Position numbers and translations under genes: made by a program. A DNA stretch of 64,000 nt from NCBI RefSeq assembly GCF_000143415.4, contig NW_003314268.1:511117-575116 (forward strand), given 5' to 3'. Positions within the stretch are counted from its first letter, which is position 1; every line of letters begins with the position of its first letter. This document shows positions 29,461 through 61,830 of the stretch, in pieces. The notes below the pieces were generated by a model. It had not been told where the DNA came from and searched no databases. It saw only the letters and a program-made list of their open reading frames with translations. This stretch comes from Selaginella moellendorffii. Taxonomy: Eukaryota > Plantae > Lycopodiophyta.

Positions 29461-29668
29461 CCTTTTGTGTCCCTTTTCTAGAGACTCTTTTATCTTCATG
29501 CTCAATCCTTGAGCACTCCATTGGGAGTTCCACTCTCGCTCTTGACCTTTCAAGTCGGAGCCTTTTAGTCCAAACGTGTTACGCTCGTTTGGCTTTCGCT
29601 TCGGCCACTACCACGTGGCACCCTTTCGGCTCCACTTTGGGGTTTAGGGATTTGTGTCTCACAACTAA

Positions 29669-30675
29669 CCTATATATATTATAAGTTGATGAAGCTCCAC
29701 CACTCTTGGATCGAGGATGGCTTAAATATAACTAAGGTCAAGGAGGTGCCACATCATCATCAAGAATGCGGTTCGAGACTCAAGAATCGTACAGGAAATC
29801 AGAGAGTAAGGAATAGGGAAGTGTCTCGAGAGTCAGGAATATGGTCTATGGGTCAAGAATTCGGCGAGAGTCAGAAATGTGGCAAGAATTGGGGGATTCC
29901 TGACAGTACCCCCTCCTCAAGAACGAGTGGAACGAGGACATGAATGAGAACAAAGAGGAGGATGAGATAGGCGGCGAGGGACGGGAGAGGGAGAATGAAA
30001 AGAATAATTGGGATGAGAAGGATAGCAGTGGTGGAAGTCCTGAATAAGGTCAGGAGAATGAATTAGGTTGTCCGCAAGTTCCCAAGTGCGTTCCTCAGGT
30101 TCATAACCCTTCTAGTCTACTAGATAGTAGAGTTTAGACCGTGAGATCTTGGAATCAAGGATGTCCTAAACTTCATATTTAGACCCATCCTTGAGTTGCA
30201 CTAGTGGAGGCAAAGGAATGACCCGATTTGGAATAGAACTGGGAATAAGGCTCAAGGAGAGAGGAGTGAAAAATAGGGTGAATTTGATATGAGGAGGGAA
30301 GTGCAAGGCAATAAGTGACAGCATTAATGATGATAGTGATAGGGCAAGGACCGAGGCGTTTGAAATCTTGTAAGGGGGACAATCCTGACGATGGACATTG
30401 GTGAATGTTTTGTGAGATTCCTAAGCACGATGGAGGTGGAAGGAGATGGAGTTGTGGATTTCCTGGAGGTTGGAGACAAATACCTCAGAGTGGGGACTTT
30501 AACGAGACGATTCGAATGGAGAAGGAAGTGAGAGATTGAATTGAGGATTTCGGCCAAAGTTTGCTAAGAAGGGGGAAACTCAAAGGGAGGAGTGAACAGA
30601 GTTGTTATAAAAGAACTCAGCAAGGGGAAGGATATCGAACCAATCATCCTGATGATAATTGATGAAGCACCTCAA
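29669..30675 (-). pseudogene. Ty3/gypsy chromovirus remnant: integrase C-terminus, GPY/F, chromodomain, PPT and start of 3' LTR
   Basis: Minus strand reads [55 protein letters not shown] and YEV*DILDSKISRSKLYYLVD*KGYEPEERTWE. PPT GAGGAGGGGG followed by TGTCA at ~29905. Confidence 0.8.
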
Positions 30676-31334
30676 AGCTCTATTTCGTTAAAGTGGGATT
30701 TATTCAGTAAAATGGGACTAGGTACAAATTTTCAAGTATTTGAAAATGACGTGAAATTATATGTTTTTTGTCCAGGGGCTAGACATATCTGGGGCATGGT
30801 GACTAGCGCGGTGACTTTGTGTCCAGACTGAGTCCATCTGGTTGTATAATAAATCTCATTGTCAAGGTGAACAAGCCGAATCTGAAGCTAAAGAAGAGCG
30901 ATGGCATGCGCGCACACACTATTTGTTTGTTCATTGAGCGTGTGGTGAGCTTTCCAAGATGAACGTCATTCCTATTAGCCAGACATATAACTTAATGGTG
31001 AGAACATTTAGATATTATTCAATGTTATCTTTTTCTAACGAATCTAATTGTGAAGGTGTAGCAAGAGGCATTGCTAGTCTGGAGAAGTCATTTAACTCAT
31101 TTGACCCTTAATGTACTTTCATGAAACTAAATAACATTCATATTATTAAGGAATTTCTCTAGTACCTTTTTTTTACGACATAGAGGCTTGCATTTCTTTC
31201 AAAGGTGATTTAGTAAAAGGCCTGAGGGCACATGCCATTCTATTTCTCAGACCGGTATTAAGATATACTAGTGCAAAGGGAAAAAGGTATTTGGTGATCA
31301 AGTAAATGGCATGAGGGCACACGCCATTATAAGC

Positions 31335-31592
31335 CTAAGCGCTAGTGGACACCTCCTTTTTGGTACTCTCAGCGGTACTATCATCCTTCTCCGGGTCAGT
31401 TGTTTTGCTTTGGATTGTTGTCTCTGACGTTACTGGGGCGTTCTCGATAGTTGTTAATGTTGCCGTTTGTTCAGAAAAATGATCACCTGGAGTATAGTAC
31501 GGGGAGTTTGGAAGACTTATATATTCTACATCTTCACCTATCTCCTTCTCCGTCTCCTTTTCTGCCTCACTTACAGATTTTGTGCTTGCCAT
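31335..31592 (-). CDS. Small acidic S/T-rich ORF (85 aa) inside transposon
   Basis: MASTKSVSEAEKETEKEIGEDVEYISLPNSPY... is open in both element copies. No recognisable domain. Confidence 0.3.
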   Translation of the reverse strand: MASTKSVSEAEKETEKEIGEDVEYISLPNSPYYTPGDHFSEQTATLTTIENAPVTSETTIQSKTTDPEKDDSTAESTKKEVSTSA

Positions 31593-31872
31593 GAGAACGC
31601 TCTTCACCCTAAAATATGGAGTTCGTTGTGTTATAAAAGGAAACCAACACACACGCTACAAGGGAATGATGGTACATAAAGCACGTAAGCCCACAATATG
31701 GGTTTATGTGCCATTAATATGGGCCACACGCCATATTATTAGATTTATGCACGTGTGATTGGTAAATGCATATGTCACATCATCTCAGGCCACATGCCAT
31801 CACGCCTCCTCTGATTCAGATTCGGATTGTTCACCTTGAAATAAAATACATTAGAAACTTAGTAAAGGAATA

Positions 31873-34800
31873 TTAATGAATCTCACCTTGAACCTGGGTT
31901 ATGAATGCTCTTGCTGCATCTCTTGCATGGTCTGGCAAGGTGATGGTGGCACTCTGCTTCCGCATCCAACCATGCACAACATTATCCACCGATATGCTCA
32001 TGCTGGGATCCCTTGGATTCAGCACCCATCTCTTTTCTAGGCAATCCTTCGTATATCCGGAACTTGGCTTGAACCACTCCACATTTACATTGAAGGAGTT
32101 AGTTTCCGCGTCCTCCTCTGCATCAGTGATGCAGCGCCCCACCCATATCATTTGTTTTTTATTACTGGGTCTGACAAGCACGACCATTCCTTTGCAGACC
32201 TGTACTGGATTGAATGCTGAATCCAGCTTCTTGTTCCTCGGCCCACAATAGTGATCCTCAACATCGTTATCTGTCACTGCATTTCCAGAGGACATTGTTC
32301 CGCTACTATCTGGTGCTCTGGGTTCTGGCCAAAAGGACTCTTCCAATTCTTCATATACAACCGGCCCATTTTGGATAGCAGATATAATCTTCTCCCAGTA
32401 TTCGAGCAAAGGCTTGCACCTCTGAAAATAGGATTCTCCACCAAACACCAACCCCCTCTTCCAGAAGGCAATATGCTGTCTAATCCCGGCCACTATACTT
32501 TCTTGGTCTTTGAGTCCATCCGGGTGCATCGGCCGTGGGGAACCCTGAGGAATCATAGGTTCCCCAGTTATGGGATCTCTCTTGAAGAGTTCAATGCCGT
32601 CCACTGGCAGCCACACTGTGTCCCATTCTCTCATCTTGTACCTCATCACTGGAGCACCGTCACACATGCTGAAATGAAACTGAAGAGGCTTGGAGTGGCC
32701 AATCAGCGTTTTGGATCCGTCCCTGATGTAGCCTCTTACAAACCCCTTAAAGTCTGGAACCTCTGTCAGAAGTGCAGCTTCAACAGTCCCTTTGATGCAA
32801 TTTTGGAATTCATCGTAGAGTTGTGGGAGGGTGAGGACATTGGATCGCCGGAGGGACTCTGCCAGGTGATTGAACATGGCATCGACGTCTTCATGAGTGT
32901 GCCCAACCATGAGAAAGCCAAGTGTAACCGTTTCAAATATGCCTTTGGCAACAAGCATCGCCAAGTACGCGAAGACGTACATGTTTTTGTTCTTACTGCC
33001 AGCATTGTCTGTTTGGAGCAGAAGATGGGGTGGAAGGCCACATCGGCCGCAAGAACTTCCTTGAGATTCTGCTTCGTTTGGATGAGGCTGTGCATTCACC
33101 GGGCGACCAGCCTCGTCGGAATGGCATGAGGCCTCACGTGATAACCCTACAATCTGACGGCCAACATATTCATTGGGATGGCATGGGGCCCCACGCGATA
33201 CTGCAAGCCTTTGCTCCTCCTCCAGCTGAACCCTGTATGGGGTTCGATCGACAAGGGCCTTATGCAAGGGTTGGCCATTCAGCTCAGTCTGCACACTTTG
33301 CAGAGACCTTAAGTGTTTTGCTAGGGACGCAATCATCATGTTTGCACCCCCGCCACCCCATAGAGGTACAAAGAAGTTCCCATAGTTCTGGGCACCATGC
33401 CCATGAGCGATTATGCCAAACAGAGACACAGGCAGCTGCATGGATGAAGAGATTGCCTTGGGGGCAGGATTGAGTCGAGGTAAGCACGTCTTTTTCTGGT
33501 CCATTTTGTCATGGATGATGCAGAGGTAAGAGTCAGGTCTCTCCATGGAGAGAATCCTGTTATGATAATATGCAGTCCTGCAGCTTCTCTGCTCGATGTT
33601 GTGGTCGAGCCGCCTTCTAACCAATGTCTCTCGCTCTTGAGCGCTGCAAGAATTCTTCGACAAAGCCATTTTGATAGCAGTGCACTCGTCACACTTTGAA
33701 AAGCTAAAGTACTTTCCTATACTCACATCCCTGAACCTGTTGCTCCACAATCTACTAAATCTAGATTGGCTCAGCTTCCTGTAGCCATTACTCTGGAGTT
33801 CCCAATTCACATCTTCCAATATGGCCCCCTTGGTATACATGGAAGGGAGAACTCGTTGGGTGTCTCGTGTTCCATCTTCCAAGAGGCGGGTTTTATGTGG
33901 TTGCTGCTCGCTACATGTCTCGACAAACCTCTTGAAGATTGCCTCTCCATATACAACATGACCCCTGGTTTTGTGTGTACCGTCGTTCCCATGGACTGCC
34001 TGTTGAACCCTTTGTTCCTCGAACTCAGTTTTGATTCTGTAGAATGTGGTTTGAGGGACTCCATAAATGATTCTCCATGCCTTCATGCAGACCAAACCCC
34101 TCTGGAAGACCATGCCCCCCACCTGATGTTCTGAAGCATCAACAGATGACCGTAATGCCTCATACACAAAATTGCGAGCTGCCTTCCAGGACAATGTCTT
34201 GTATTTTGCTCTCTCCTCTTCAATAGCATCCCAATCAGCATGTTGACAGCACCTCCTCTTGCAACAAGCAACTGTTGAGACCATTCGAACCTCCATCGCC
34301 ATTTTCTGCCTTTTCGGTTCGTTGCTCAGATCCCTTTGGCTGCGCTTTAGGAAGGTGTACTTTCTTTTCCCATGAAGAGATGTTCTGTCATCAGTTGTAG
34401 TGGTGTTTGATTGTGAATCCTTCACATTCTCAAACACTAAGTGCCTCAATTTCCACCGCACAATGCTTCCAATAGTCAGACTGTTTTCTTCTGTGTCAAC
34501 AACCTCTAAAATCGCAACTCCAATATCATCCCAGCCCAATTCTTGATTAGCAACCGCATCTCTTGGATCGACAACTGTGGCTAAGCCCTCAGCTACCACC
34601 TCCCCCTCGGGGTTGTTCAGAAACACCTTCGCCTGAATCCATGTAGCACGGTTCTTAAGATCCACGGAGGGAACATGCGTCGCACTTGCGCTGTCCCCAA
34701 CATCTGCTTTCTTCTGAAGATTTTTCAAGACAACAACAACATTTACCCCGACGACCATCTCTCCTCGTTCAATAGCGACCACATTCCCATCGAAGACAGT

Positions 34801-34941
34801 CTCTACTGATACAGCAGCATTGCCTTCCCCAAGCCTTTGACAGTGTATAACAAAGTTCCGATCCATAGACACAAGGGTCCCTTTTGCAACTCTCTTCCCA
34901 CCATTCAAAATGTAAACCTTTTCCCCAAATCTGAAGGCCAT
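31873..34941 (-). CDS. DD(D/E) transposase, Sola/DUF7869-like, 1022 aa, apparently intact
   Basis: RNase H-type motifs IIHDKMDQ, LQTDNAGSKNKN and GFLMVGHTHEDVDAMF. Cys motifs CCKRRCC, VCMKAW and FSKCDEC..H. Two N-terminal VAxG..DP..LG repeats. Splice acceptor immediately before the ATG. Confidence 0.8.
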   Translation of the reverse strand: MAFRFGEKVYILNGGKRVAKGTLVSMDRNFVIHCQRLGEGNAAVSVETVFDGNVVAIERGEMVVGVNVVVVLKNLQKKADVGDSASATHVPSVDLKNRATWIQAKVFLNNPEGEVVAEGLATVVDPRDAVANQELGWDDIGVAILEVVDTEENSLTIGSIVRWKLRHLVFENVKDSQSNTTTTDDRTSLHGKRKYTFLKRSQRDLSNEPKRQKMAMEVRMVSTVACCKRRCCQHADWDAIEEERAKYKTLSWKAARNFVYEALRSSVDASEHQVGGMVFQRGLVCMKAWRIIYGVPQTTFYRIKTEFEEQRVQQAVHGNDGTHKTRGHVVYGEAIFKRFVETCSEQQPHKTRLLEDGTRDTQRVLPSMYTKGAILEDVNWELQSNGYRKLSQSRFSRLWSNRFRDVSIGKYFSFSKCDECTAIKMALSKNSCSAQERETLVRRRLDHNIEQRSCRTAYYHNRILSMERPDSYLCIIHDKMDQKKTCLPRLNPAPKAISSSMQLPVSLFGIIAHGHGAQNYGNFFVPLWGGGGANMMIASLAKHLRSLQSVQTELNGQPLHKALVDRTPYRVQLEEEQRLAVSRGAPCHPNEYVGRQIVGLSREASCHSDEAGRPVNAQPHPNEAESQGSSCGRCGLPPHLLLQTDNAGSKNKNMYVFAYLAMLVAKGIFETVTLGFLMVGHTHEDVDAMFNHLAESLRRSNVLTLPQLYDEFQNCIKGTVEAALLTEVPDFKGFVRGYIRDGSKTLIGHSKPLQFHFSMCDGAPVMRYKMREWDTVWLPVDGIELFKRDPITGEPMIPQGSPRPMHPDGLKDQESIVAGIRQHIAFWKRGLVFGGESYFQRCKPLLEYWEKIISAIQNGPVVYEELEESFWPEPRAPDSSGTMSSGNAVTDNDVEDHYCGPRNKKLDSAFNPVQVCKGMVVLVRPSNKKQMIWVGRCITDAEEDAETNSFNVNVEWFKPSSGYTKDCLEKRWVLNPRDPSMSISVDNVVHGWMRKQSATITLPDHARDAARAFITQVQGEIH

Positions 34942-35307
34942 TCTGAAAGTGCAGAAAAGAAGTTAAGACCATACAAAAAATGATTGGAGAATGGCCTAAA
35001 TCATAACATACCAAACAACCTCAATAGCATGAGGCCACATGCCATTATTCAAACATGCTATTGACACCCACGTGAAATTTCGCATTCACAAAATTGGCAT
35101 GAGGCCTCATGCCATCTTGATATACACACAGCTGCAGGCAAATAAAAACATACATGACAATACGCTAGCCATGAAATTGCAAGGGCCCAAGATGGCATGT
35201 GGCCTCATGCCATTTCTAAATGTGGTCCTAAGCCATTCCATGGTGAACATACCAGGAAGCACAAGTGCCGAATATCAAGAGGAAGCGGTAGCCACACCAA
35301 AGACAGT

Positions 35308-35440
35308 GCCGCTCGCAACACCGCAACTACTCGTAGCGCCGCTCGCAACACCGCAACTGCTCGTAGCGCCGCTCGCACAAACTGCCACTTGCATAAATTG
35401 CCGCTCGCAATGGCGCTCGCAATGCCGCAACCGCTCGTAG
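35308..35440. repeat. 30-bp tandem repeat (GCCGCTCGCAACACCGCAACTRCTCGTAGC) and CGCTCGCA motifs in divergent promoter region
   Basis: Visible ~2.3 tandem units; present only in copy 1. Confidence 0.75.
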
Positions 35441-38400
35441 ACGCATAAACCACAGCCCACAACGCCGCTTACACAAGCAGCGCTCACTGCGCTTAGCGGA
35501 ACCAAGAACACGGCGCACAAAAATGATAGACCTAGGAATGAGTTTGAGAATTCAAAAATAACACACGCTTGAACGTCACATCAAATCCTCTGACAAACCA
35601 GATTTTATGATTCCTCTGACAAATTTCAAACTGAGTAGCTTCTAGACTTTGCTGTCGAAGGTTGAACTTTGTCACATCATGTCCTTGCCTCGATCCAGCT
35701 GTGCCATGTCAGTGATTCGAACTTCCAAAAACTCTCGCACGTGTTAGAATATTCTAGGAATATACTCCTATGTGCCCCTGAAAATGGCATGCGGCCCCAC
35801 ACCATTCAAGAGATAACGCCAGATGACGCTGAGCATTTTTTGGTGCATTTTTTGGGATCAAAATTGCATGAGCACAAAATTACATTGTATACCATTCTTT
35901 ATTTAGCTGAACATCTGGCATTTTTGGAAATACAAGATGCTTTGGAATATCCAATCATGCATGGTATAAATATAGCGAGGGTATTAAATGATATCCCAAT
36001 CATGATCTTTCTTTTGGATTTCGCGTGCATGTAGTCCGAGGAATGATGACGTTGCGGATTTCTTTTGGATTTCACGTGCATGCATGCGCGCGGCGACCCA
36101 GAAATTAATGGTGGCGCCCAAGTCCGAGGAATGATGACGTGGCGGGATTACCAACCGTCGTGACATTTCGCGCGTGTGAGGTTAGGTTTTGCATTTTGCT
36201 TCGTACTCGCGCTCACACACTCGCGCTCGCATCACGCTCCCACTCGCGATCATGCTCACATTCGCGCTCATCTACCTTCTCTACAGGTTTCTCGTGTGCA
36301 TCGGCGTCCACTCGCGCTTGCATCACACTCGCGCTCACATCGCGCTCGCATCGCGCTCGTGTGCATCGGCGTCCACTTCAAGACACACTCAGTTTGTAAC
36401 TTCGCCGCCAACTCCGCCGCCCACTCCGCCACCCACTCCGCCACCCACACGCAGCCCACTTGGCGTCCCGGGAGATTTCAGCGCCACTCTCCAACTGTAA
36501 GTGGTAGAGTAGCCTTGCTGCTACGATCCGCTGCACACACAGTGCACATTCGCCAGCGAGTCCGGCCTCGATTGTCACGGCCTCCATTCGACTTCAAATG
36601 GTAAGTCTTTTAGGCCAAGTAGAAAATGGCATGAGGCCACATGCCATTCAGTAGCAACATTGGCATGCACCGATTGGGCTCTCGAGTGCAGTCCGGTTAT
36701 AGATGGCGTGTAGCCTCACGCCATCTTAGGATGCAGCCTCAAGACATCTGATGCAGTGGTGAATGGCATGTGGCCTCACGTTATTTCCAGCTGCTAGCTT
36801 TTCATCTGTCAGCTCTAATTGTTGTGCATTTCTGAACAGGCGAGGAATTGCGTTCTTCTTCCAGCCACTATCAATGTGGATGCAGAGAAGGGGGAGGAGC
36901 TCACCAGTTGGACTTTCGGGATGGAAGGCGAGGATCTGAGGCTGTACAACACAGATGGTGGGAGAAAAGAATGCATGGGGATCCTCATCCAAGTGACAGA
37001 CACTCCATGCAGTTCCATGCAAGAATATGGACTGGCACTTGTGGTAGAGACAGCGTCCGCCTTCAAGATCCACCTTGCACATCCTAGCGGCTTCCCGGAG
37101 GGGGGCAGCAGCTATGAGGAATTCCTAGAGGGAGCTAGGGAGAGGTTGTCTAGGAGGCCCACAATTTCAAAGACGCTGCGGGTCTATGAAGATCACATGG
37201 AATCCACGGACCTCACCTACGGCGATGTTCAAAAACTATATTCCAACATTGAGCCGTTGAGAGTGCCTCCAGTTCACGAAGCGAAGGGGAAGGGGGTCGA
37301 TATGGAAACTACCCCGAAGCAGAAAAGGGTGGTCAAGCTCAAGCTGACGTCCGACTCTCCTGCAGCTCCAAAAAAGAAGCTACTCGGTGATGCCATTGCC
37401 TCGGGTTCGAACACTACACCCACCAAAAAGAAGAGCCGCAAAGAGCAGAAAGAGCAAGAAGAGGCAGCAAAAATCGTCGCAGATAATAGTACTTGTTACT
37501 ATTCCAACAAAGTATATACAATCGACGTGAGCCGTATCGAGATCCAAAGCAAATACAAACACAGGCTAGTATCTGATGAGTGGGTGGAGAAACTGAAGCA
37601 GAAGATGCTGGCAAGTCTAGTAACACCCGACATCGCAGACGTGATCCCCTACTACCGAACAATGAAGGGCGAGACGAGGTTTCCAGACTTGATCAATAGG
37701 AAGGTGTTGGACGATCAGAACATCCGGTTCTACGCCGTCTCCGGGCAGCATTCTAGCTTGGCGATGCAAGAGATAGTTGTGGATATTATGGTGGGCGAGG
37801 AGGTGAAGAAAGTCTTCAAGACAAGAGTTGTCCGCCTGATAAAAGGCAACTCGCCCCTCCGATCTATCATATCCATCTCCCACGCACAGAATGTCAAGCA
37901 AGAAACGTGCTACAAATCGGGTCTGCACGAGACATTGGCATGAACACGGAAGCTCTGGGTTCAACTGAAGAAGCCACAAAAACCAGGACAAGGACATGCA
38001 CTAGCAACTAGCGCCTGGCAGGTAAGCCTTGTTGCATGTGGCATAGCATGTGGCCTCACGCCATTTCCATTGCAGGAATTTTCGGGTCTTCTCTCGAAAA
38101 CACTGGGGGTCAATGACACACTCAGCATCCATAACATTCTACTCGCAACAAAAGTTGTTTTTGACAAATGGGTAGATGTGCTGAGGAGGTACCATGACGG
38201 GGAGTTGCTAAACTCAATGGGTGTGGAGGACGGTCGGAAGCCCAATGATTTGAAGCTCAACGCCTTGCGTTTCTCGCGGTCTCTAGACGACGACAACCTT
38301 CTGACAGTGGCTAATGCTCTTCTACGTGGTGAGGTAGTCTTCAACAAGACCAAAATGACTCCCGGCCATATTGTGACATACGAGGACTTGTGCACGACTC

Positions 38401-39069
38401 TGAGAGCTCGTGCGCTATTGAAGGATTGGATCTTCGAACAAGTGGCCGTGGAGAGGGTGAGCATCGACACCACACAAGAGATGATGGAAGAGCTGGAGCT
38501 GTCAAATGAAGACATCGACGACTACGTGAAAGGGGCCCCCAAGTTCATCGATCTGCTGCGGGATGCCACGGAAAGTAAAGCTGAGAAGTTGGATCAGTAT
38601 CCAAATTTCATTAAGAGGGATGTCGACCGCCGGCTTCAGAAACAGCTCGACCCCGCAGCAGAGGCCTATCGAGAACCTTACTAGGTATACATGAATTCGG
38701 ATGAGGATCAAAGGTGGAGGAGCATCGTTTCCCGCGGAGATGAGCAGGTCAAGAACATCTTTTGTGTGATGGACTTCACAAACGAGGAGATCACTCATGC
38801 AGACGAAGTCAGCTCCATCATTGACTTAATGGTGGGACTTGCGGAGGTGGAATCTTCAGTCCACTATATGATCTACGACTCCGAATCCTATCACAAGTTC
38901 TGGAAGGCCTTGAACGAGGTGAAGGCTCGGTTGAAAGGCAAGGAGATGCAAGAGATCCATGGGATAATGGCTAAGAAGAAGATACCGACGAATGTCCGCA
39001 TCTTCACACTCGCCCTTGTTATTGGTCCTGCAGCAGAGTGGGACTGGAGTGACTTCCCAGCTTCATTCG

Positions 39070-42000
39070 TGTCGCGCATGTGACTTCGGGTATCGAAAGT
39101 TACCTGTCGACTAGTCCTTACGGACACTCTTACCTTACTGCCACGATGGCAGGAGGTCGGTATTGCTGGGCCTGTTATCAGTCTCCGCCTAAGCTAGTTG
39201 AGAAACTGGTCTTCGCGTGTGCACTTGACCAGATGGGCATAAGGACGGAATTCCTACGTGCTATTTGTCAAGCATACTTGACCTGGTTAGAGAAACTCAT
39301 TCGTTGACTTGCACTTGCTAGTGTTGGGAACCCCCGTGATATTGAGCTTGGTCCCTCAATATTGCTAGATGATAGCTTACCGTGTCTGCCAAACACCCTC
39401 GCTATCATGCCCTTTGTGTTGGTCTCATTTCGGTCCCAAATGCTATTTATGGGAAGTGTCCAGATTTGCTCATTTGGCATATCTACGGAATGTAGAGATC
39501 GTCCTGAACACAATGGTGTTCGTCCCATGTCCAAATTCGCAATCTAGGGACATTCCATATTTAGTAAGTTTCGAGCTTGTCCCAGAGACTAACTCCTGAT
39601 ACTAAGGGAGGCTTGGGGTGAAAGCCCAAAGCATGTGTTCCTCAAGGGGGGGGGGGCTATAGGGGGTTCCAAATGTATAGTAGGGATAGTGGGTAGGTCG
39701 GGCATGGCCGACCAACCTGAGGCATAGTCTAGCTCCCGCTTGCGTGCCTGTCTTTGTTCTGCGTCCGGCTTGGGTCTAAGCCCAAGTTCCATTCCATGCT
39801 AGTTGGTGGAGTACCCATGTCCTCGCGTTAGGCCACCGGTATGCTGAAATAGCGCCAGACTCCGTTTGGCTCCGTTTTGCGTGCTGGTCCTGGCATTGGG
39901 ATGCTGGTTACTCTAGGACTGTTCCAAGTCGCTCCGGGCTCCTGTCCCTTCGCTCCTTGGGCTTCATGCTTGGGAGTGGCTCCGTGGTTCGGTTCCGTCA
40001 CTCCTTGGCTCCATGTTTGGGAGTTTGGCACCGTTCCTTCGTTCAGTGGCCCAAGGCCCTGAACCTCGGGTTCCTGTGGACACGTGGCATGGACACGTGG
40101 CATCTGTCACGTGGCACAAGGAGGGTTTAGGTTCCGCTTCGTGGTGTTATCCTATGGTAAATCACCATAGGATAAAGGGTCAAAACCACGTGCGCTACAT
40201 TTGGTATCAGAGGATGAGTCTCAGCGAGTACTATTCAATGAGATTGGGCAACTAGTCTCGTTGCATACGCAGAGATGAAAACGATGATCCGAGTGGGTAC
40301 ACGTTTGGTGCAAAGGGTTCGCAATTGTTCCTTGGGTATGGATTTGGTTACCTTTTGTACCTAATAATGTGAGCTTGCTCTTGGGCTCATAGGATGGATT
40401 TGAGATGCTCCGTTAGCACGAGTTTACGCTTGGGCTCGTGAGTGAAGCACATTAGCAACTCGAGATTAAACTTTGGGTTGGCAGGATTAATGTTAGGCTA
40501 TCAGTGGTTCCATGAGTTGTTCCGTGTACCGTTGGTAAAAGCAAACCTTCCCTGAGTTTGCTATGAGTGGCAAATAGGTTGGTCCGTAGCTGTTTAGCAC
40601 GGCACTAGTAGATCCTTCCTAGGCATGATTACAAGTGGATCAATCAAGACTGTAGGGATTAGTCTTTTGATTCAAGTAATCATTGCCGTGCTCTCTCATA
40701 AACTTTTCTTGGATTGGACTGAAAGCAGTGCGAACGCAAGTTTGAGGTTTAGTCAAAGATGAGACCGAAAAGAGAGTTATCAGGGACGAAGGATCAAACA
40801 CGTAAATCATCTTTTCTTCTTGGAGAGATGATTTGCAACGAGGTGTGACTCATTGCTCGTGTTCACATTATGCAATCAAGAGTCCCTATCTTAATGCATG
40901 TTGGAAATGATAGTCTTACAAATGGTGAGTTGTGGGATGGATAGCGGTGAAGCACTAAACCATTTTGTCTAGGCTTGCTATGGGAAGACTTGGGTTGCAA
41001 TGCTCAATTCTTTTTCGGGGAACCTAGCTATTGCTCCTTGAGTAGCTTGGTGTTGGGTTAAGTTTTGAGTTTGATCGGATAGCGAGTGGTATGGGCTTGT
41101 CTGTGTTGTGAACAAAAGTTAGTGGTGTTGGGTGTTATAGATCTCTATCGGTAGAGTGTGGCATTTATGTTGCATTTTGTCGAATCGAGTTGACACTTGA
41201 TACTCACATAAACCTTTGAAGTAATGACATTGGCATTGCTCGTGGTGTTGCTCAATTGGTGATCAAGTCATTGTGATTTCTATATCATATCCATGTGATA
41301 ATGAACAATGTGTTTACGAAGTTGCTTGGGTAAACGATGATCAACCCCAAAGTGGTTGATGGTGAAGCTAGTCTACTTGCACGAAGTAGCATTGTAGTAG
41401 CTTTGACTGGATTCTCAATGGTGGTCCATTATGCTAAGCTTGTTTCCTTGAGAGTTGCCCATAACGTGTTGGAAGAAGGTTATAGCATTCATTTGCTATA
41501 GCTCATCAGTTGATCCGTTAGCACTTGGAGTAGATTGCTGGATGGAGAAAGTGTGTAGTTGAAACATTGACATTGCTAACACTTGTGTTAGTGGAAGTGA
41601 CATTGTTGTTTCAAGTGATGAGGATTTTCCTTAGAGCTTGATTTTCCATGTCATTTTTCTTGTTAGTGTTTTAGCTTCACATTGGATCTTGAAGGTGGTT
41701 GAAGAAGAGTGTTAGTGCAATGTGGATATCCAAAGATGTGGTCTTCGTGATCAAGCCTTGGATGTTCCATTTGCATTTTATGGATGTCGGTGTTAGATGT
41801 CGAAAGTATGGGCAAAAAGAGATGTTCGATGCTTAAGCATACTATGGGTCATGAGAATTTGTGTTGAAGTGAACCTATGTGAAGTTGTTAGTAGGAGGAA
41901 GTTGGTTGAGTCTTGAAAGTTTGCATTCTTGGACTGAGAGTTATTCTTTCTCTAGGATTGGAAGATTTTCCACAAATTTTCTTAGACTTTTCTAATGGCT

Positions 42001-45000
42001 AATCTGTTATCACTTTGCTCGAAAATCATTCCGTTTTCATAAGCCAATACAAACTAGTGAAGGGGTTGGAGTTGACTTCGGTTAGCTTAGACCTTAGTAG
42101 ATAGTTTGTATGATGCAGCCCAAAAGGGATGCTAACTTTTGGGGCTAAGGCAATTGAATTGGATAGAGTCTGGAGTTAGTGTAGAAAAGTGGCCGTTGCG
42201 CTTTTCTAAGAAAAGTGACTTTTGTGCCTTTCTTCTGTAGCGTTATGCTTAGTGGCAAATTGCACTTGGCAATTTGTTAGACTCTATGAGAGTAGTGAGC
42301 TCTCACTGATCTTGACTTGGACTTGGTGGTCCTGCGCCTTGGCTGAGGATAGTGATGTCCAACTTAGTTGTTTGAGTTTGAGATGTTAGTACCCGTACTA
42401 TAGCTTTGTTTATAAGGAGGTTGTGTATTGATATGGATCCATCATATGGTCTTCACTTTAGTTTCGACTGAGTGTTGATTATGCATAGCTAGCCTCTTCA
42501 AGGCATGCTCAGAGCTAGTGACTAAATGCATTGGTGAGCTTATCGCGGTTGAGTTGGATTTGAGTGGTCATTTAGTTCGTGCTTGTCTATGAAACTTTAT
42601 CTCGTACCTGAGGTATCACGTTCATGTTGGACAAGTGTATGACTAAATGACGTGAGTTTAGTGTTTCGATCTCGTGAAAGCAAGTTGAAAAAGTGATGGT
42701 TAGTTGCTTTGCGACTAATGATTGCTTGTAGACTTCATCGAGGATTGTTTAACACTTGCTTCGCTCGATGAAGATTTAGCACTGATGGGTTTGCTTTACC
42801 GGATGGTGTTGCGGAGGATCGTATCGTTAGACTTACATGAGTTTACCATGTTGGTATGTTGATTCTACCTCTGTCGATATCAATTGGTTGCGTTTAGTTC
42901 ATAGTGTTGGATTTCATGGAGTCTTGGACATGGTGATTCACTCCTTGAGGAAGTGTTATCTATAACTGAGTTTTGCTAAAGGATTGGTCTCGGTTACTAA
43001 CTAAAGTATCTTCGACCTTGGTTAGCTTAGTTGCTAGAGAGCTTTGAGTGGTGATTCACTCGTGCTTTCTTCTAGCTTTGTTCTAGTGTTGATGGTATTG
43101 AAGTGATGCCTTATCGTTGACATTGTTGATGTTGAAATTTTAGTGAAATGAGATGTCTCTCTGCAAGATTGATGTCGAGCTTCATTAGTTTTGATAAAGA
43201 TAGTGTTGATGATTTGGCTATGGCTTTGTGTTATTAGCATTCGTGCATTTGCTAGTTAGCAACTGTGTTGACGTTCAAATGAACTGAGTGACAAGTTTGA
43301 GTTAGTTGTGTTCTAGACGAGATTATTTAGTAAGGGTTAAGCTTTGGCTTTTCCTTGAAAAGTGATTTAGTCATGGACTATGCTAACTCTACAAGATGAA
43401 GAGTTAGTGATTGATATTGAAGATGTTAGTCCCTTGTTGGGTTTGCATTGGGATATATCAATCATTGATGATTCTTTTTGTGCTTATTATGAAGTGAGCT
43501 ACGTCTTGCTATGGATGGATTCATGGAGGATCGTTTGGTGATCACTTGTCTAACATAGCTTCGTTATGTTTAGCTTTTGGATTGATGCAGACATGCTCTT
43601 CATTAGCTTTGCATTATGAAGTTTAGCTTATGGATGTGTTGAGGAGGATATTGTGGGTTGTACCATGATTTCTTTTTTAGCATTGAATTTAGTTCATGCG
43701 AGACTCGTGATCATTGTTAGGCAAAAACTTCGCTATAGACTTCTTCGAGCTTTTGGTTCCTTGAGTTTTCATGCTTGTGGTCCATTTGTTTGAAGTTGTT
43801 AGGGAAGGCATTTTTGGCTCTTTAGCTTCAATGTTGAAGTTAGTATTTGCATATGGCAATCATTGGTGATGATTAACTATCATCTAGGATAGTTGATTAT
43901 CCTTATCAAAAAGGCTTTGCTTGATTATTGTTGATATAGAATGATTTGCCATTCTTTGAGATGGTGGATTCTTTCTTCGATGATGATTATGCATTTCTCT
44001 ATTGATAGGATGATTGATGATCTTTTATGGTAGTTAGTTGTTCTCTTTGATGGCTTGTGGCTTTTCGCAAAATCACATGTTCTTTGTGATTTGCTCTGGA
44101 TTGGTTTCTTAGGTTTGAGACATCAGTAGGATGTTGCTGACACTTGCTTCGGCAACTTGAGTTCCTTGGTATTGTTGGCTGGGATCTATTCAGATTAGCT
44201 TTTGTGATAGTTGGCAGGAATGAGTGTTTGTTGGTCTTACCACATTCATTTTCTTCTATTGATTGTTGCTCAAGTTAGTTTTGATAGATTTGGATGTTAT
44301 TTCCTTTGGGTGATACATTCGTGAGCATTTTGCTTATCAGTCAATGATACTTTGTGTTCTTTGAGTTGTCTTTCGTAAGTTGTTTGGTATTTTATCTGCA
44401 ATCTTTGATAGTTACGTTTGGTCATTGAGTTTTCTTGATAATACACTTGCTATTGAATTTTGTTGGATGGTCATTCCTATGTTTACCAATTTTGATGATC
44501 TTGGTGGTTCCTATCTACTATAATACTGGTTTATCAGATGATAACTTACTTGGAATACTTTTGTGTTCTAATCAACTTCGGGTATCGAAAGTTACCTGTC
44601 GACTAGTCCTTACGGACACTCTTACCTTACTGCCACGATGGCAGGAGGTCGGTATTGCTGGGCCTGTTATCAGTCTCCGCCTAAGCTAGTTGAGAAACTG
44701 GTCTTCGCGTGTGCACTTGACCAGATGGGCATAAGGACGGAATTCCTACGTGCTATTTGTCAAGCATACTTGACCTGGTTAGAGAAACTCATTCGTTGAC
44801 TTGCACTTGCTAGTGTTGGGAACCCCCGTGATATTGAGCTTGGTCCCTCAATATTGCTAGATGATAGCTTACCGTGTCTGCCAAACACCCTCGCTATCAT
44901 GCCCTTTGTGTTGGTCTCATTTCGGTCCCAAATGCTATTTATGGGAAGTGTCCAGATTTGCTCATTTGGCATATCTACGGAATGTAGAGATCGTCCTGAA

Positions 45001-45705
45001 CACAATGGTGTTCGTCCCATGTCCAAATTCGCAATCTAGGGACATTCCATATTTAGTAAGTTTCGAGCTTGTCCCAGAGACTAACTCCTGATACTAAGGG
45101 AGGCTTGGGGTGAAAGCCCAAAGCGTGTGTTCCTCAAGGGGGGGGGGGCTATAGGGGGTTCCAAATGTATAGTAGGGATAGTGGGTAGGTCGGGCATGGC
45201 CGACCAACCTGAGGCATAGTCTAGCTCCCGCTTGCGTGCCTGTCCTTGTTCTGCGTCCGGCTTGGGTCTAAGCCCAAGTTCCATTCCATGCTAGTTGGTG
45301 GAGTACCCATGTCCTCGCGTTAGGCCACCGGTATGCTGAAATAGCGCCAGACTCCGTTTGGCTCCGTTTTGCGTGCTGGTCCTGGCATTGGGATGCTGGT
45401 TACTCTAGGACTGTTCCAAGTCGCTCCGGGCTCCTGTCCGTTCGCTCCTTGGGCTTCATGCTTGGGAGTGGCTCCGTGGTTCGGTTCCGTCACTCCTTGG
45501 CTCCATGTTTGGGAGTTTGGCACCGTTCCTTCGTTCAGTGGCCCAAGGCCCTGAACCTCGGGTTCCCGTGGACACGTGGCATGGACACGTGGCATGTGAC
45601 ACGTGGCATCTGTCACGTGGCACAAGGAGGGTTTAGGTTCCGCTTCGTGGTGTTATCCTATGGTAAATCACCATAGGATAAAGGGTCAAAACCACATGCG
45701 CTACA
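39070..45705 (+). mobile_element. LTR retroelement family A, copy 2, nested in the cargo gene
   Basis: TG at 39070, CA at 45705. TSD ATTCG (39065-69 / 45706-10); empty site visible in copy 2 at ~58313. 5' LTR 39070-40199, iMet PBS 40202-40212, 3' LTR ~44575-45705 lacking its first ~13 bp. LTRs near-identical. Confidence 0.95.
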
Positions 45706-47924
45706 ATTCGACAAGGCCGATCGAATTGATCTGAGGGAGGTCAATTTACCCGTGCCTGAGGAACTGAAGACGGCTATGGAGCTTTCGAATCCAGAGAAAG
45801 CTCCAGGTGCAGCATGGGAAATGCTCAGCTGGGTCTTCAACGCAATAGCACCTGCTTCTGACTCCAAGGGCAAATGCGTTGTCGAGTACAACTGCAGCGG
45901 ACTATTCTTTCGAGCCGCACTACTCAAGGGTGTCCCGTGTGTTGCGGTGACAAACTCCATTGAAGAGGTGACTTCAATGAAGCATATAATTACAGTTGCC
46001 AAAGAAAAACAGTATCTTCTCTGCGAACCTGGTGAGTACGCACTTTAAGTTTAAATGTTATCTCACAAGCTCTGTATGCAGGAGCGTGGCCACCGCCAGA
46101 TGCTGAAACAGCGTTAACAGCTACTATTGGGCCGAGCTCACAACCTGCACAAGGTAAGGTCACGTGAGGCCTCACGCCATTTTGATTATAGATCGTTGTG
46201 AATATTCAGACACGAGGACTGAAAAGCGCACTGGTGGCGCGTCGAAGAAGGACAAACAGACAAGCAATAGGAAAAAAGGAGGTACAAATTATATTTGCAA
46301 TGGCGTGTGGTCTCATGCCATTCCTTGCAGGAGACACTTCTTCAAATGCAAAACAGGCAAGCACCAGCCAAGCTCAAACTGACAGTGGTCATAAAAAGCG
46401 AAAGCACGTTGGACAGTCGTCGGGATCAAAGGCGTTTGATTCGAAAAGGAAGAAGGGCAATGAAAAGATGATATGTAATACCTCGCGGTCACCACCTCCT
46501 GACTCAAATTCCTATGGCGGACTCCCCTTCCCCAATCTCAATGGAGAGGTACAATGGATGAGGGATGCTTTTCAAGTCAGGGCCACGTTTTTCTCATCTC
46601 GTCGTCTTCAAAGGGTGCAAGAACGTGCAGAAACCATGTTAAGACAGTCGGGTGAGGATACGGTCCTAGGTCACGCACTAAAACAGGCTATGGATGTCTT
46701 GTATTTTGAGATGGAGACTCGACCAGATGATTTTCCCAAGATGGTCCTGGAAGAACAAGCCATCCAGCCTGAGCAGCCTATGGAAGAAATGCAGGAGGGG
46801 GATGAGGAGCCAGAGAAAGATAATGAGCAGGAAGAGTAGAAGGACGAAGAGGAGGACAAAGAAGAGGAGGACGAAGAAGAGGAGGACGAAGAGGACTTGG
46901 ATGGTCCTCACAATGGTGACGATCACAATAACAACGACGACGATGATGACGACGATGGCCAGCCTAAGGTGGCCAAAGAGCAGCGGAGGAAGGTCATACA
47001 AGACAAACCATCAGGTAAATAATAGTACATCCATTCCTAACCTTTTACCATTTCTAACATTGTCCATGTAGGTTGCAAAGCAAATGGTAAGTAGAGATTA
47101 TTCAGTTGAATTAAGATACAAACTCTAGCCTTTAGTGTCGAGGAAGGATAGTGCCAAGCAAGGTCGAAACGTATGTCCAATCCTTCAGAATCAGCAGTGC
47201 GCCCAAGTGATATCGGTCCTAGTTCCTTAATAACAGTTGATGGTAAATACAGTATAGTCGATTCAATGTGCTAATGAGTTTGTTTTTAGTAGCCAGTAGG
47301 GAGGATACCATCTCAATCGAAGGGAGATATTTGGACATGCATATGGATCCGCCAGTGGACTCTACTTGCCTGCAAGAGTCATCAGAGCTGGTGGAGGCTA
47401 CTATCCATATCAATGCCAAGCAAGCTGACCACGCTCCACTTGATGCTGCCCATACCACTGAGTCAATCTTGTCCACGTATCCAACTGACGGTGACCAGGC
47501 GCCATTGGACCCGCATGAGGCCGCCCCAGCCGCCGAGCCGGTCGTATCCTCATTTCCAACGGACTCAACGTGTGCCCAATCGTCTGACTACGCGCCGTTG
47601 GAACCTCCCTACACCGCCCCTGCTGCCTGTTCAGTCATGTCCACTTTGCCAACGGAGGCACCAGCTGAAATGGCGTGTGATCACACGCCATCGGAACCAC
47701 CCCATGCCACTGTTGAGCCAGTTGTACCAGAGTCTACAGCTGAAATGGCATGTGCCCACACGCCATCGGATGCGATTGACCCCACATTGCAGAGGAGAGT
47801 ATTTCCGCCCTTCACGTTTCCTCGACCAAAACCCTCTGAACGACCATCGGGAGCACCATTCGCTAATATTGTAGATGGTAAAATTGACTTGTACCATTTT
47901 TTATGCTGACGCATTTCATTTCAG

Positions 47925-48787
47925 AGTCACGGCGAAAGTACTGTATCGTTTTTGATCTGAACGGTGTCCTTTTCTCCCATGAGCGTGGCTCGTCCTCGAA
48001 TGTCACTGCACCCTCCAAAGCCTGCGGTCGCAAGTTGGTCAAAAGAGACAGATTCACATTAATCACACGGGAGAAACTACGGGATCTAATAATGACCATG
48101 CGACACTTAAAACAGAGGGCCGGGTTCAATTTGCAATTGGGAGTTTGGACATCCATGATGCGCCACAATGCATTAACGTTGCTACAGATGATGCACGATC
48201 AGACGCGAGTAATATTACCATTTAACTTTCTCCTAACGCAGGAGGATTGCTTGACTATGGTCCATGTGAGGGGTAGCAAGCCCATCTTCGTCAAGCCAGA
48301 GGCTGTAGTGATGAACCGGACTGCTAGGTCAAGTGAAATCCTCATCATCGATGACTCGCCGATTAAAACTGCAGCGAACACGCACACATATGCAGTGCAC
48401 CCCATCTCTTGCAGTATGGAAACTAGGGAGAAGAAACCGTATGTTCTGGGGGACCTTGCAAAACGGCTTGGAGCGATGGTGATAGAGAACCGGCCAGTCC
48501 AGGAGGTGGCTGCAGAAATCAACCAAATGGCAGATGGAACGGTATATCAGAAGCCATTTGATCGGACAGACACCAGTCATCATTTATGGCATGTATATTG
48601 TCTAGCCAAGCACTATCCGCATCTCCATAATCTGCTCAACCGGATGGGTTCTTCGACCACTGAATATGAGCGTGGACGTATTAGAGAAGAGATGGCATTA
48701 CTATTGGGTTTAAATCCTGATAGTGTGGAGAGTGATGAAATTCCAAGATTATTGTATAGGCGTTGGAGGCAAAAAATAACAGTTTGA
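47925..48787 (+). CDS. Terminal exon encoding FCP1/NIF-like HAD phosphatase domain (DLNGV variant)
   Basis: CIVFDLNGVLF (motif I), GVWTSM (motif II), FVKPE (motif III), LIIDDSPIK (motif IV). Open in both copies. Confidence 0.75.
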
Positions 48788-49238
48788 GATGGCATGTATT
48801 TATTTAAAAATGTAACTTATTATGGCATGGGGTTCCATGCCATTGTATTAATATTAAAAGACAATTCTTTGAGAGGATTTGCATTATACTAGAAGTGTTA
48901 CAACATGTTACAACATGTTATTGGAAGTCTACGAAGTTGTTTTATTAATAAGGGGAAAGTAAATATTGAATGGGGACTTGGGCTCCACCTAGACTCGGAG
49001 CAACTGAGCCAATATTAAAAGGATGGAAAGAAATTGGACAACGATGACAAGGAGAAGAGAGAGGTGAAGCAGTGGCAGGGGGAGGAGAAGTGATTGAGTA
49101 GACATTTCCTTGTTTAAAATAAAATGGTATGTGCCTCAATGCAGTTGAATTTTGTTATATTTATATACTATATAAAGGTTTGGAAACCTTATTTTACAAG
49201 TGGGATAATGACAATTCCCACTTTAACGAAATAGAGCT

Positions 49239-49884
49239 TCCATTAAGATTCTAGCTCAAGAATTTATAATCAAGCACAAGACTTCAACACCGTACTACCC
49301 TCAAAGCAATGGTCAAACAGAGTTTACAAATAAGACATTTAAGAATATCCTTAAGAAAATCGTGAAGATAAATAAAAAAGACTGGGATGATCACATCCAC
49401 AACACTCTATAGCATATCAAACCATATATAGGGTTTCAACAAATTCGACATAAGTCGCCTAAAGCATAAAAGCTTTGACACCACTCAAGTACATCATCAC
49501 TGCAAATGGCAATATATTATGAGATCAACTAAGAAAAATCAATCAAGAGAAAACTACCAACACTAGAAAAGCTTGACAAAGAAGACTATAAATAATTTAG
49601 ACACTTGATGCCATTCAATCTTGAAAAAAAACCAACCATGATAGAAAAAAAAGACTAAAGAAAAATAAAGAAAATGATCAAGTACTCTAGTTTGGAGGAA
49701 ACATTGAGAAAATTGACTCTAAAGTAAAGTCAAGATGGGAAGGACCATTCCTCATCCAAAAATTCAAAGCTTCGGGAACAGTAGCAATCACAACACTCGA
49801 TGGCAAGCATCTCTAAATTGTTAACCTCAACAAGCTCAAGAAATACTAATTGTATGACTCAAATATCATCAACAACAACCTTGA
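49239..49884 (+). pseudogene. 646-bp spacer: degenerate Ty3/gypsy integrase fragment
   Basis: Reads HKTSTPYYPQSNGQTEFTNKTFKNILKKIV..KKDWDDHIHNTL* and SRWEGPFLIQK (GPY/F). Confidence 0.8.
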
Positions 49885-50529
49885 AGCTCTATTTCGTTAA
49901 AGTGGGATTTATTCAGTAAAATGGGACTAGGTACAAATTTTCAAGTATTTGAAAATGACGTGAAATTATATGTTTTTTGTCCAGGGGCTAGACATATCTG
50001 GGGCATGGTGACTAGCGCGGTGACTTTGTGTCCAGACTGAGTCCATCTGGTTGTATAATAAATCTCATTGTCAAGGTGAACAAGCCGAATCTAAAGCTAA
50101 AGAAGAGCGATGGCATGCGCACACACACTATTTGTTTGTTCATTGAGCGTGTGGTGAGCTTTCCAAGATGAACGTCATTCCTATTAGCCAGACATATAAC
50201 TTAATGGTGAGAACATTTAGATATTATTCAATGTTATCTTTTTCTAACGAATCTAATTGTGAAGGTGTAGCAAGAGGCATTGCTAGTCTGGAGAAGTCAT
50301 TTAACTCATTTGACCCTTAGTGTATTTTCATGAAACTATATTAAGGAATTTCTCTAGTACCTTTTTTTTACGACATAGAGGCTTGCATTTCTTTCAAAGG
50401 TGATTTAGTAAAAGGCCTGAGGGCACATGCCATTCTATTTCTCAGACCGGTATTAAGATATACTAGTGCAAAGGGAAAAAGGTATTTGGTGATCAAGTAA
50501 ATGGCATGAGGGCACACGCCATTATAAGC

Positions 50530-50787
50530 CTAAGTGCTAGTGGACACCTCCTTTTTGGTATTCTCAGCGGTACTATCATCCTTCTCCGGGTCAGTTGTTT
50601 TGCTTTGGATTGTTGTCTCTGACGTTACTGGGGCGTTCTCGATAGTTGTTAATATTGCCGTTTGTTCAGAAAAATGATCACCTGGAGTATAGTACGGGGA
50701 GTTTGGAAGACTTATATATTCTACATCTTCACCTATCTCCTTCTCCGTCTCCTTTTCTGCCTCACTTACAGATTTTGTGCTTGCCAT
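50530..50787 (-). CDS. Small acidic ORF, copy 2
   Basis: Near-identical to 31335-31592. Confidence 0.3.
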   Translation of the reverse strand: MASTKSVSEAEKETEKEIGEDVEYISLPNSPYYTPGDHFSEQTAILTTIENAPVTSETTIQSKTTDPEKDDSTAENTKKEVSTST

Positions 50788-51485
50788 GAGAACGCTCTTC
50801 ACCCTAAAATATGGAGTTCGTTGTGTTATAAAAGGAAACCAACACACACGCTGCAAGGGAATGATGGTACATAAAGCACGTAAGCCCACAATATGGGTTT
50901 ATGTGCCATTAATATGGGCCACACGCCATATTATTAGATTTATGCACGTGTGATTGGTAAATGCATATGTTACATCATCTTTGTTTTACCTCACACACTA
51001 TATCAGGCCTAATGAACCATATCACATGTGTGCACATGCTATATATATGGAGAAGTATTATGCAAGGATAGAAAAATTCAATGCATGATTGTGGAGAGCA
51101 ATGGCATGAAGCCACATGCTAAATAACATTTTAGAGAAAGAATTAAAATAAAAACATGCAAACAGTACTTAGAAGTGCACAATTGAATGAGGTATTTCTA
51201 ATAAATATTTCACTCACCTCATATAAGAATGGCTACCACTCTCAAATGGCGTATCGCCTCATGCCATCACCTCGCAATTTATTATAACAATCCGATGAAT
51301 TCATATTCGGCTTGTTCACCTTGAACTTTAAGTAAGATTTGCTAGAACAACTAAGAATTTATACTTGTTATTTGTATCATCTCACCTAGGAATGGCGTAA
51401 GGCCACATGCCATCACGCCTCCTCTGATTCAGATTCGGATTGTTCACCTTGAAATAAAATACATTAGAAACTTAGTAAAGGAATA

Positions 51486-54400: not shown

Positions 54401-54554
54401 CATCGAAGAAAGTCTCTACTGATACAGTAGCATTGCCTTCCCCAAGCCCTTGACAGTGTATAACAAAGTTCCAATCCATAGACACAAGGGTCCCTTTTGC
54501 AACTCTCTTCCCACCATTCAAAATGTAAACCTTTTCCCCAACCCTGAAGGCCAT
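51486..54554 (-). pseudogene. Transposase copy 2 with one premature stop
   Basis: Collinear with 31873-34941; CAG>TAG at 53715-53717 splits the ORF. Confidence 0.85.
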
Positions 54555-61379: not shown

Positions 61380-61830
61380 GATGGCATGTATTTATTTAAA
61401 AATGTAACTTATTATGGCATGGGGTTCCATGCCATTGTATTAATATTAAAAGACAATTCTTTGAGAGGATTTGCATTATACTAGAAGTGTTACAACATGT
61501 TACAACATGTTATTGGAAGTCTACGAAGTTGTTTTATTAATAAGGGGAAAGTAAATATTGAATGGGGACTTGGGCTCCACCTAGACTCGGAGCAACTGAG
61601 CCAATATTAAAAGGATGGAAAGAAATTGGACAACGATGACAAGGAGAAGAGAGAGGTGAAGCAGTGGCAGGGGGAGGAGAAGTGATTGAGTAGACATTTC
61701 CTTGTTTAAAATAAAATGGTATGTGCCTCAATGCAGTTGAATTTTGTTATATTTATATACTATATAAAGGTTTGGAAACCTTATTTTACAAGTGGGATAA
61801 TGACAATTCCCACTTTAACGAAATAGAGCT

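Follow-up and report, generated by a model that had tools for sequence, protein, structure and literature searches.

The locus analysed here, a 64,000-nucleotide stretch of Selaginella moellendorffii DNA (assembly GCF_000143415.4, contig NW_003314268.1, positions 511,117 to 575,116 of the forward strand; "the window" below, numbered from its first letter), raises the question of why a 22-bp palindrome is scattered about 22 times over a 12-kb transposon, mostly in its introns and other non-coding DNA. Judged by sequence comparison, the palindromes sit in two tandem, decayed copies of a Sola1-like transposon bounded by terminal inverted repeats (TIRs). Our answer, held with somewhat more confidence than doubt, is that they are parS-like docking sites for a ParB-like protein predicted from the second gene of the element (gene 2), and that they serve the family for self-recognition and likely for regulation. 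The two copies are:

30675..49239: transposon copy 1, whose own sequence makes up about 12.6 kb, with a long terminal repeat (LTR) retrotransposon nested in it; 24-bp TIR, ends AAGCT...AGCTT; TIR matches at 30675 and 49239, and self-BLAST
49884..61831: transposon copy 2, with 19 palindrome sites; DNA contigs of other copies end at 49884 and 61831

The palindrome and its distribution

The palindrome is a real feature of the window. At a spacer length of 6 the pattern ATGGCRTG-N6-CAYGCCAT was found 16 times exactly and 34 times with up to two mismatches in the whole 64 kb, whereas the 15 other spacer lengths between 0 and 15 gave no exact match and four at most with up to two mismatches; dinucleotide shuffles of the window (n=100) gave no match. 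The fixed spacer length of 6 proposed in an earlier note on this DNA is thus borne out. A palindromic (symmetrised) position weight matrix (PWM) was trained on 21 sites and used with a listing threshold of 6 bits. Leave-one-out scores of the sites were 18.6-37.2 bits, and copy 2 has 19 sites above 15 bits as against 0 in 200 Markov-2 simulations. Outside the element, that is, in approximately 38 kb of host genes, LTR elements and inserted gypsy sequence, the PWM maximum was 4.4 bits, in agreement with the observation in that note that host genes and LTR elements of the window are devoid of the motif. All of the 59 exact half-sites in the window lie within the element, 53 of them as parts of full sites and 6 isolated.

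The spacer had been described as variable in sequence; instead, its centre is conserved as GGCC, and the site is the full 22-bp dyad ATGGCRTG-W-GGCC-W-CAYGCCAT. Among 42 symmetrised sites the inner spacer positions are G in 38/42 and G in 33/42, and the loose positions are 9 and 14 alone (A or T). The coordinates reported for the palindromes all held on rescanning. The site at 49124, listed as degenerate, is present but doubtful, with four mismatches and a score below the 6-bit listing, and the list of extra sites in copy 2 (51101, 51246 and 51392) is correct but incomplete, since 51021 had been overlooked, as had 31779, which is cut by a deletion. Flanks were said to differ between sites; they are mostly unrelated (median 15/50 identical), but two pairs resemble local duplicates, 47670/47745 (27/50) and 30901/51392 (25/50). 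The sites of copy 1 are placed as follows:

30901..31800: palindromes 30901, 31217, 31306 and truncated 31779, in the left subterminal region, beyond the 3' end of the transposase; a further four, at 51021, 51101, 51246 and 51392, are retained in copy 2
within 31873..34962, minus strand: palindromes 33121 and 33178, in frame, in the hypervariable transposase linker (alignment columns ~700-810)
35024..35805: palindromes 35024, 35094, 35192 and 35784, between the two divergent genes
36626..36784: palindromes 36626, 36703 and 36763, in predicted intron 1 of gene 2 (36601-36839)
38043..38064: palindrome 38043, in a predicted 54-bp intron (38022-38075)
46159..46321: palindromes 46159 and 46300, in predicted intron 46154-46330; 46300 would be coding in an alternative splice model
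47670..47766: palindromes 47670 and 47745, a local duplicate pair read in frame within a stretch of gene 2 rich in Pro and Ala
48822..48843: palindrome 48822, directly 3' of gene 2

On the predicted gene models 15 of the 19 copy-1 sites are non-coding (binomial p 7e-5), with six in introns (8.3 per kb), nine in other non-coding DNA (2.7 per kb) and four in coding sequence (0.5 per kb); the last four are those of the transposase linker and the Pro/Ala-rich stretch. Because the sites have dyad symmetry, a fixed length and a self-complementary conserved centre, and because 15 of 19 are non-coding, they are best read as docking sites of a protein. The earlier note had argued for the operator of a dimeric protein, and most of that argument stands: the length is fixed, the symmetry is dyad, there is no sign of RNA pairing, the motif is confined to the element within the window, and relatives carry clade-specific palindromes. 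The part that contrasted conserved arms with a free spacer does not hold in detail, since GGCC at the centre is conserved.

Differences between the two copies, 2/358 inside the motif versus 129/10810 outside, make an uninformative comparison. Within intron 1 of gene 2, family variants fall at 12 places, all outside the three palindromes (p ~0.04, clustered and weak), a count that omits two positions at which the window departs from nearly all contigs, one of them within a palindrome. A 106-amino acid acidic, Thr/Ser-rich open frame (31335-31655, minus strand) lies downstream of the transposase in both copies with palindromes on either side; it has no Pfam match and, from its sequence, is possibly an exon of a third transcript.

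Gene 2 as the candidate partner of the palindrome

The element has two divergent genes, one of which is interrupted in copy 1:

36598..48787, plus strand: gene 2, predicted, divergent from the transposase; about 1609 amino acids, 8 GT-AG introns, broken by the gypsy insertion
37494..37940, plus strand: ParB/Srx-like domain of gene 2, identified by hidden Markov model (HMM), by atlas scores of 0.95-0.96 to DUF3723-type clusters and by the structure model of a relative
47925..48787, plus strand: last exon of gene 2, NIF/FCP1-like HAD phosphatase domain (Pfam NIF E 6e-6, 26.4 bits, cut-off 21.8)
39070..45705, minus strand: nested LTR retrotransposon of 6.6 kb that interrupts gene 2 in copy 1; its target duplication is 5 bp long, and it has no palindrome
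31873..34962, minus strand: transposase open reading frame (ORF), 1029 amino acids stop to stop; DUF7869 (Pfam E 3e-40), Sola1-like

The predicted product of gene 2, which in copy 1 has three in-frame stops and one frameshift, consists of a ParB-like domain, a helical domain, a methyltransferase-like region, an acidic low-complexity linker and the phosphatase-like domain, in this order. Its large exon, exon 2, aligns with divergent genes located beside related transposases of a distant clade, with R, G-x-H-S and N invariant, and an HMM built without the window rows detects the ParB-like domain at E 2e-6 to 4e-6. The structure predicted for one of these relatives, at locus L059, found bacterial ParB, Noc and KorB as its top Foldseek matches (E 2.6e-5). 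It aligned with PadC at a VIA Z of 10.5 (root-mean-square deviation, rmsd, 2.6; 99 residues aligned), its residues 16-323 with pNOB8 ParB at Z 8.6 (rmsd 4.5, 208 aligned) and its residues 154-323 with the DNA-binding domain of KorB on its operator at Z 5.0 (rmsd 4.2, 107 aligned). The ParB N-terminal fold of the modelled relative is firm, and it is tied to the window protein by the HMM. ParB-like homologues were also found in records of the fern Ceratopteris, the lycophyte Diphasiastrum and Ginkgo, the last being complete fusions of ParB-like and N6_N4_Mtase domains.

The methyltransferase-like region of gene 2 is probably dead, a pseudo-enzyme. While the relatives L057 and P0094 match N6_N4_Mtase in Pfam, the window region shows a weak collinear similarity (hhalign E 0.08) with the catalytic motifs missing in both copies, and the methyltransferase HMM had no match on window gene 2; the pairwise z is 3.1, yet another stretch of the gene 2 protein scores equally. 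Motifs of an amino-methyltransferase are apparently intact at L057 1648-2939 and L059 1257-2152 (both minus strand; Pfam N6_N4_Mtase E 1e-10), and positions 98-7691 of L059 form a complete-looking 7.6-kb element with a 33-bp TIR. The phosphatase-like domain (47925-48787, plus strand) reads D-L-N-G-V at the motif position, where NIF/FCP1-type proteins usually have DxDx(T/V). Other searches added nothing: a word-based search of exon 2 against longer proteins retained 0 of 4275 candidates, tblastn of the gene 2 exons against the 80 related loci described below found nothing at E<0.01, and an atlas search with the N-half of the putative methyltransferase gave no usable match. One of three matches in a representative search, P0015, is a repeat protein and was judged spurious as a gene 2 homologue; a PDB sequence search with the gene-2 alignment gave a ribosomal match only, also spurious.

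The transposase has the three acidic motifs seen in the family alignment, and DUF7869 is presumably linked to Sola transposases. Its relatives are 14 proteins at 30-41% identity, apart from one near-identical record. The structure model is poor (predicted local distance difference test, pLDDT, 50) and had no structural match at E<=0.001; weak matches of this low-confidence model to tandem Tudor/Agenet/KOW folds and to the BAH domains of EBS, SHL and AIPP3 (E 0.001-0.03) would point to possible histone readers on the transposase.

The gene 2 protein would dock on the palindromes as a dimer, with the helical domain that follows the ParB domain reading the half-sites, and docking would single out members of its family for regulation, protection from silencing being the most likely form. 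From the sequence evidence we consider binding of the palindromes by the gene 2 protein rather likely; should it bind them, an anti-silencing outcome appears to us about as probable. The sites may have spread by local duplication and been kept where coding tolerates them, namely in introns, intergenic DNA and flexible linkers, and their number would let the protein coat the whole 12 kb, not merely its ends. Such element-wide occupancy would likely keep the element expressed, as VANC does with unrelated parts (PMC5735166). Because the methyltransferase part is probably inactive, the effect here would come through occupancy, or through the phosphatase-like domain and recruited host factors; relatives with intact methyltransferase motifs could write N4-methylcytosine (4mC) or N6-methyladenine (6mA). 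We advance as a tentative and rather doubtful extension that land-plant transposons retain a module of the bacterial ParB/parS type as an address system of their own, in which the protein would load at element-wide palindromes, slide or spread, and deliver a 4mC/6mA writer (intact relatives) or a CTD-phosphatase-like domain (window family), with protein and site co-diverging by clade.

Related loci and competing explanations

We compared 80 loci with related transposases, which form 31 clusters. In 8 of the 31 clusters a blind detector found a palindrome repeated at least six times no farther than 3 kb from the transposase, against three copies at most in its controls (shuffles and five window controls). 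The window motif itself was not found among the 80 loci, save for one 13.6-bit site in L020/L021, nor in viral contigs. The distribution of palindrome motifs agrees with the transposase tree, built from 34 rows without L031 and L080, which are too short: a GCTCAAACT-type dyad is common to L003, L005, L006 and L007, and L001, L011 and L012 have their own dyad each. Of the 21 loci in the distant clade with a visible ParB gene, 16 have a TCGAT-type palindrome, which invariably lies upstream of the transposase and, wherever both genes are seen, between the two. A clade that we label moss-type for description has a 22-bp GGCC-centred dyad, by eye alike to the window motif at about 15 of 22 positions; at least four sites are present in 24 of 33 loci, which are not independent of one another and 13 of which served to train the PWM for this dyad. 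Here the dyads form 46-49-bp tandem arrays upstream of the transposase and are dispersed downstream. A separate array of 17 palindromes of 26 bp at L017 20515-21495, about 9 kb downstream of the transposase, is probably part of another element.

Several observations weigh against the gene 2 protein as the partner of the palindromes. A ParB gene was found in only 10 of the 80 related loci. For the closest transposase relatives, L001-L012, a second gene cannot be seen because the contigs reach 2 kb upstream at most, and in the moss-type clade none was detected in up to 10 kb of flank (best E 0.2). This absence is inconclusive though unfavourable because those copies are decayed, with 2-9 stops per 220-325 amino acids. 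In L026, L072 and L017 the opposite strand has NIF-like remnants 7-10 kb upstream, a weak hint that gene 2 was once present there; among 14 flank ORFs the sole Pfam match was a weak one to NIF in L026 (E 0.0096), and a translated all-versus-all comparison of the moss-type flanks gave DNA-level repeat matches with no clear second gene among the matches listed. Of 9 long loci, 2 also have recurrent palindromes (7 and 8 copies) at distances beyond 5 kb from the transposase. The gene 2 model was predicted from splice signals and frame continuity without RNA support; run X20, presumed to be RNA, showed no splice joints, which speaks neither for nor against the model. The structure is that of the L059 relative (pLDDT 82), which is about 17% identical to the window protein. 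Matches to the DNA-binding domains of KorB, SopB and ParB are collinear but weak (Z 3.8-5.0, a range common for helical bundles). ParBs that bind CTP carry an arginine patch, GxxR, and this position is G-Q-H-S in the window and G-S-H-S in relatives. Some phage ParBs are described as having no DNA-binding domain (PMC13229309), and plant transposases can themselves be sequence-specific activators, according to a preprint on AtMu1 (bioRxiv 10.64898/2026.08.24.746577).

The last point leads to the transposase itself, which might bind the palindromes as internal enhancer-like or self-activating sites. A transposase is present at every palindrome-bearing locus, the motifs track its tree, and the AtMu1 transposase is reported to bind and activate its own copies; in the same preprint its binding peaks at the TIRs (bioRxiv 10.64898/2026.08.24.746577). 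In the window, by contrast, the TIR is without the palindrome, the first site lies 226 bp inside the left end, and a different motif is repeated at both ends:

30691..30717, plus strand: terminal motif AARTGGGA, with two copies at the left end (30691 and 30710) and two inverted copies at the right (49198 and 49216)

To judge from its position and sequence, AARTGGGA is a likely transposase-binding signal separate from the palindrome. In the three clades checked the TIRs showed no resemblance to the palindrome (best, 5-6 matches to a 10-11-nt half-site). Because the ends carry a separate motif and the TIRs are unlike the palindrome in three clades, the transposase is left with a likely site of its own. 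In addition, the arrays of L042, L049, L051 and L059 are closer to the 5' end of the ParB gene than to that of the transposase. We consider binding by the transposase unlikely.

The palindromes could also be the sequences that the methyltransferase recognises and marks as self with 4mC or 6mA, assisted by ParB. Relatives retain D-I-P-Y-like and F-S-G-T-G motifs, and self-modification has been proposed for the Ectocarpus homologue (PMC12477816), but the collinear window region has no such motifs in either copy and its similarity is weak, and we regard this as very unlikely. A host transcription factor or chromatin protein whose sites the element exploits would fit the non-coding and intronic bias, and the element would presumably need host factors for its expression. 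Yet neither a site nor an exact half-site occurs in the host genes and LTR elements, about 38 kb in total, related elements use different palindromes, and about 30 bits of information is long for the site of a plant factor; we think a host factor highly improbable. Equally hard to credit are RNA hairpins (for instance in the splicing of small introns) or inert micro-repeats spread by repair, even though site density is greatest in predicted introns (8.3 versus 0.5 per kb in coding sequence) and both large inter-copy deletions have one end within a palindrome: sense-strand mismatches are as often G-U (13) as, approximately, A-C (10), positions 6/17 do not covary (9/21 complementary) and positions 9/14 hold A-A or T-T in most cases (12/21), the conserved GGCC would be an unpairable loop, the site length is invariant, Rfam gives no match, and of the 28 ends of family joints 1 falls at a palindrome, which is chance level (among 15 of 87 joints listed).

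Structure of the element and comparison with known systems

The remaining parts of the array are:

49240..49883, plus strand: inter-copy spacer, repeated at 61832-62475; by eye it resembles a decayed gypsy integrase end
62476..62646: third-copy stub, left end only, identified by TIR match and self-BLAST

By self-BLAST 45707-50054 equals 58314-62646 at 99.1% identity (right part plus spacer), and the left parts of copies 1 and 2 are 97-99% identical; the tandem arrangement may have arisen when two neighbouring copies crossed over unequally. The whole element is spanned by contigs from DNA runs, which end at both TIRs; their depth is far higher on the element than on the flank and gives no copy number. 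The window copy differs from these contigs mostly by A>G and T>C, an excess that would be expected for decay by cytosine deamination. One family contig has plant telomere-like repeats in place of 56242-56329. The flanks of the element do not match as a 4-bp target-site duplication (TSD) in the window or in L048, L059 and L065, the window junctions being rearranged and the metagenome repeat contigs possibly chimeric. Two large indels distinguish the copies, 31785-31787 / 50981-51399 and 35031-35723 / 54644-55004, both with one end within a palindrome; in the second, 361 bp of a different high-copy repeat occupy the gap. That palindromes are hot spots of breakage, at which the 2/2 window deletions hint, found no support in joints across the family (14 genuine-looking family-contig joints, the source of the 28 ends counted above), which show no enrichment. 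Elsewhere in the window are host genes at 2387-11830 (glycosyltransferase 61, a chlorophyll a/b-binding protein and a PPR gene with a 911-amino acid open frame), an LTR element at 14471-21720 about 90% identical to that nested in copy 1, and a second LTR pair at 22466-29666 that holds 12-bp tandem repeats.

Self-binding by ParB-like proteins has already been proposed for algal transposons (PMC12477816; bioRxiv 10.1101/2025.02.11.637652). Sola1-1_Ec32 of Ectocarpus is a large Sola-1 element with an opposite-strand gene for a ParB-like protein and N4C/N6A methyltransferase, for which self-binding and self-modification were suggested (PMC12477816). Both elements have an opposite-strand accessory gene with a ParB-like domain, and the termini of both begin with AA (AACCG there, AAGCT here), as do those of the related loci compared above (AACAC). 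The Ectocarpus element, from a brown alga, is described as 21.5 kb long with a 282-bp TIR and a 4-bp TSD, whereas ours is from a land plant, has a 24-bp TIR, carries the 22-bp site about 22 times, and has a probably dead methyltransferase and an added NIF-like domain. No palindromic site for Sola1-1_Ec32 is given in the main text of PMC12477816, and the lone mention in the supplement concerns another family. PAG3 of the Bostrychia Plavaka elements has a ParB-like domain and inverted-repeat arrays, its self-binding was also proposed, and the preprint states that ParB-family proteins bind inverted repeats (bioRxiv 10.1101/2025.02.11.637652). It shares with gene 2 the combination of an accessory ParB-like protein and inverted repeats in the element; it differs in its EnSpm/Plavaka transposase, its 2OG-oxygenase effector and its tandem arrays beside the gene, the window sites being dispersed element-wide, including introns and two coding linkers.

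What appears new here is the land plant, the element-wide dispersed 22-bp sites, the clade-specific motifs, and the probable pseudo-methyltransferase with a phosphatase-like domain. We found no literature report of a land-plant transposon with such palindromes, in a search that most subscription journals lay outside, and the available text of the two 2025 algal papers (PMC12477816; bioRxiv 10.1101/2025.02.11.637652) reports no binding test of the ParB-like proteins. With a defined 22-bp candidate site, a candidate cognate gene and clades with different sites, the self-binding proposal becomes a direct experiment of cognate versus non-cognate pairs. If the docking-site reading is true, plant transposons would have a further, bacterially derived route to recognise themselves, and the clades might offer orthogonal protein-site pairs for epigenome targeting, a natural library of DNA-targeting pairs.

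The Bostrychia preprint names VANDAL as the sole transposon known to bind and modify itself (bioRxiv 10.1101/2025.02.11.637652). VANC/VANDAL and TnpA/Spm are like the window system in having an element-encoded sequence-specific protein and family-specific non-coding motifs that diverge with the family (PMC5735166; bioRxiv 10.64898/2026.08.24.746577), the pairing of protein and site being predicted in our case. Their motifs are described as 8-10 bp and non-palindromic, their proteins are unrelated and their transposases are of the MULE or EnSpm type; binding and demethylation have been demonstrated for them (same sources). There is no VANC-type protein or Mutator context here, the transposase being DUF7869 and gene 2 ParB-like. 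Specific DNA sites, parS and OB among them, are where bacterial ParB-family proteins load (PMC11790492). The window system differs from the bacterial ones in being a eukaryotic transposon in which no ParA was seen, with a G-x-H-S patch, a 22-bp site and fused effector domains; it resembles ParB/parS, Noc/NBS and KorB/OB in the order of a ParB N-terminal fold followed by a helical domain and in the repetition of sites on the same replicon, and KorB is described as a long-range regulator (PMC11790492).

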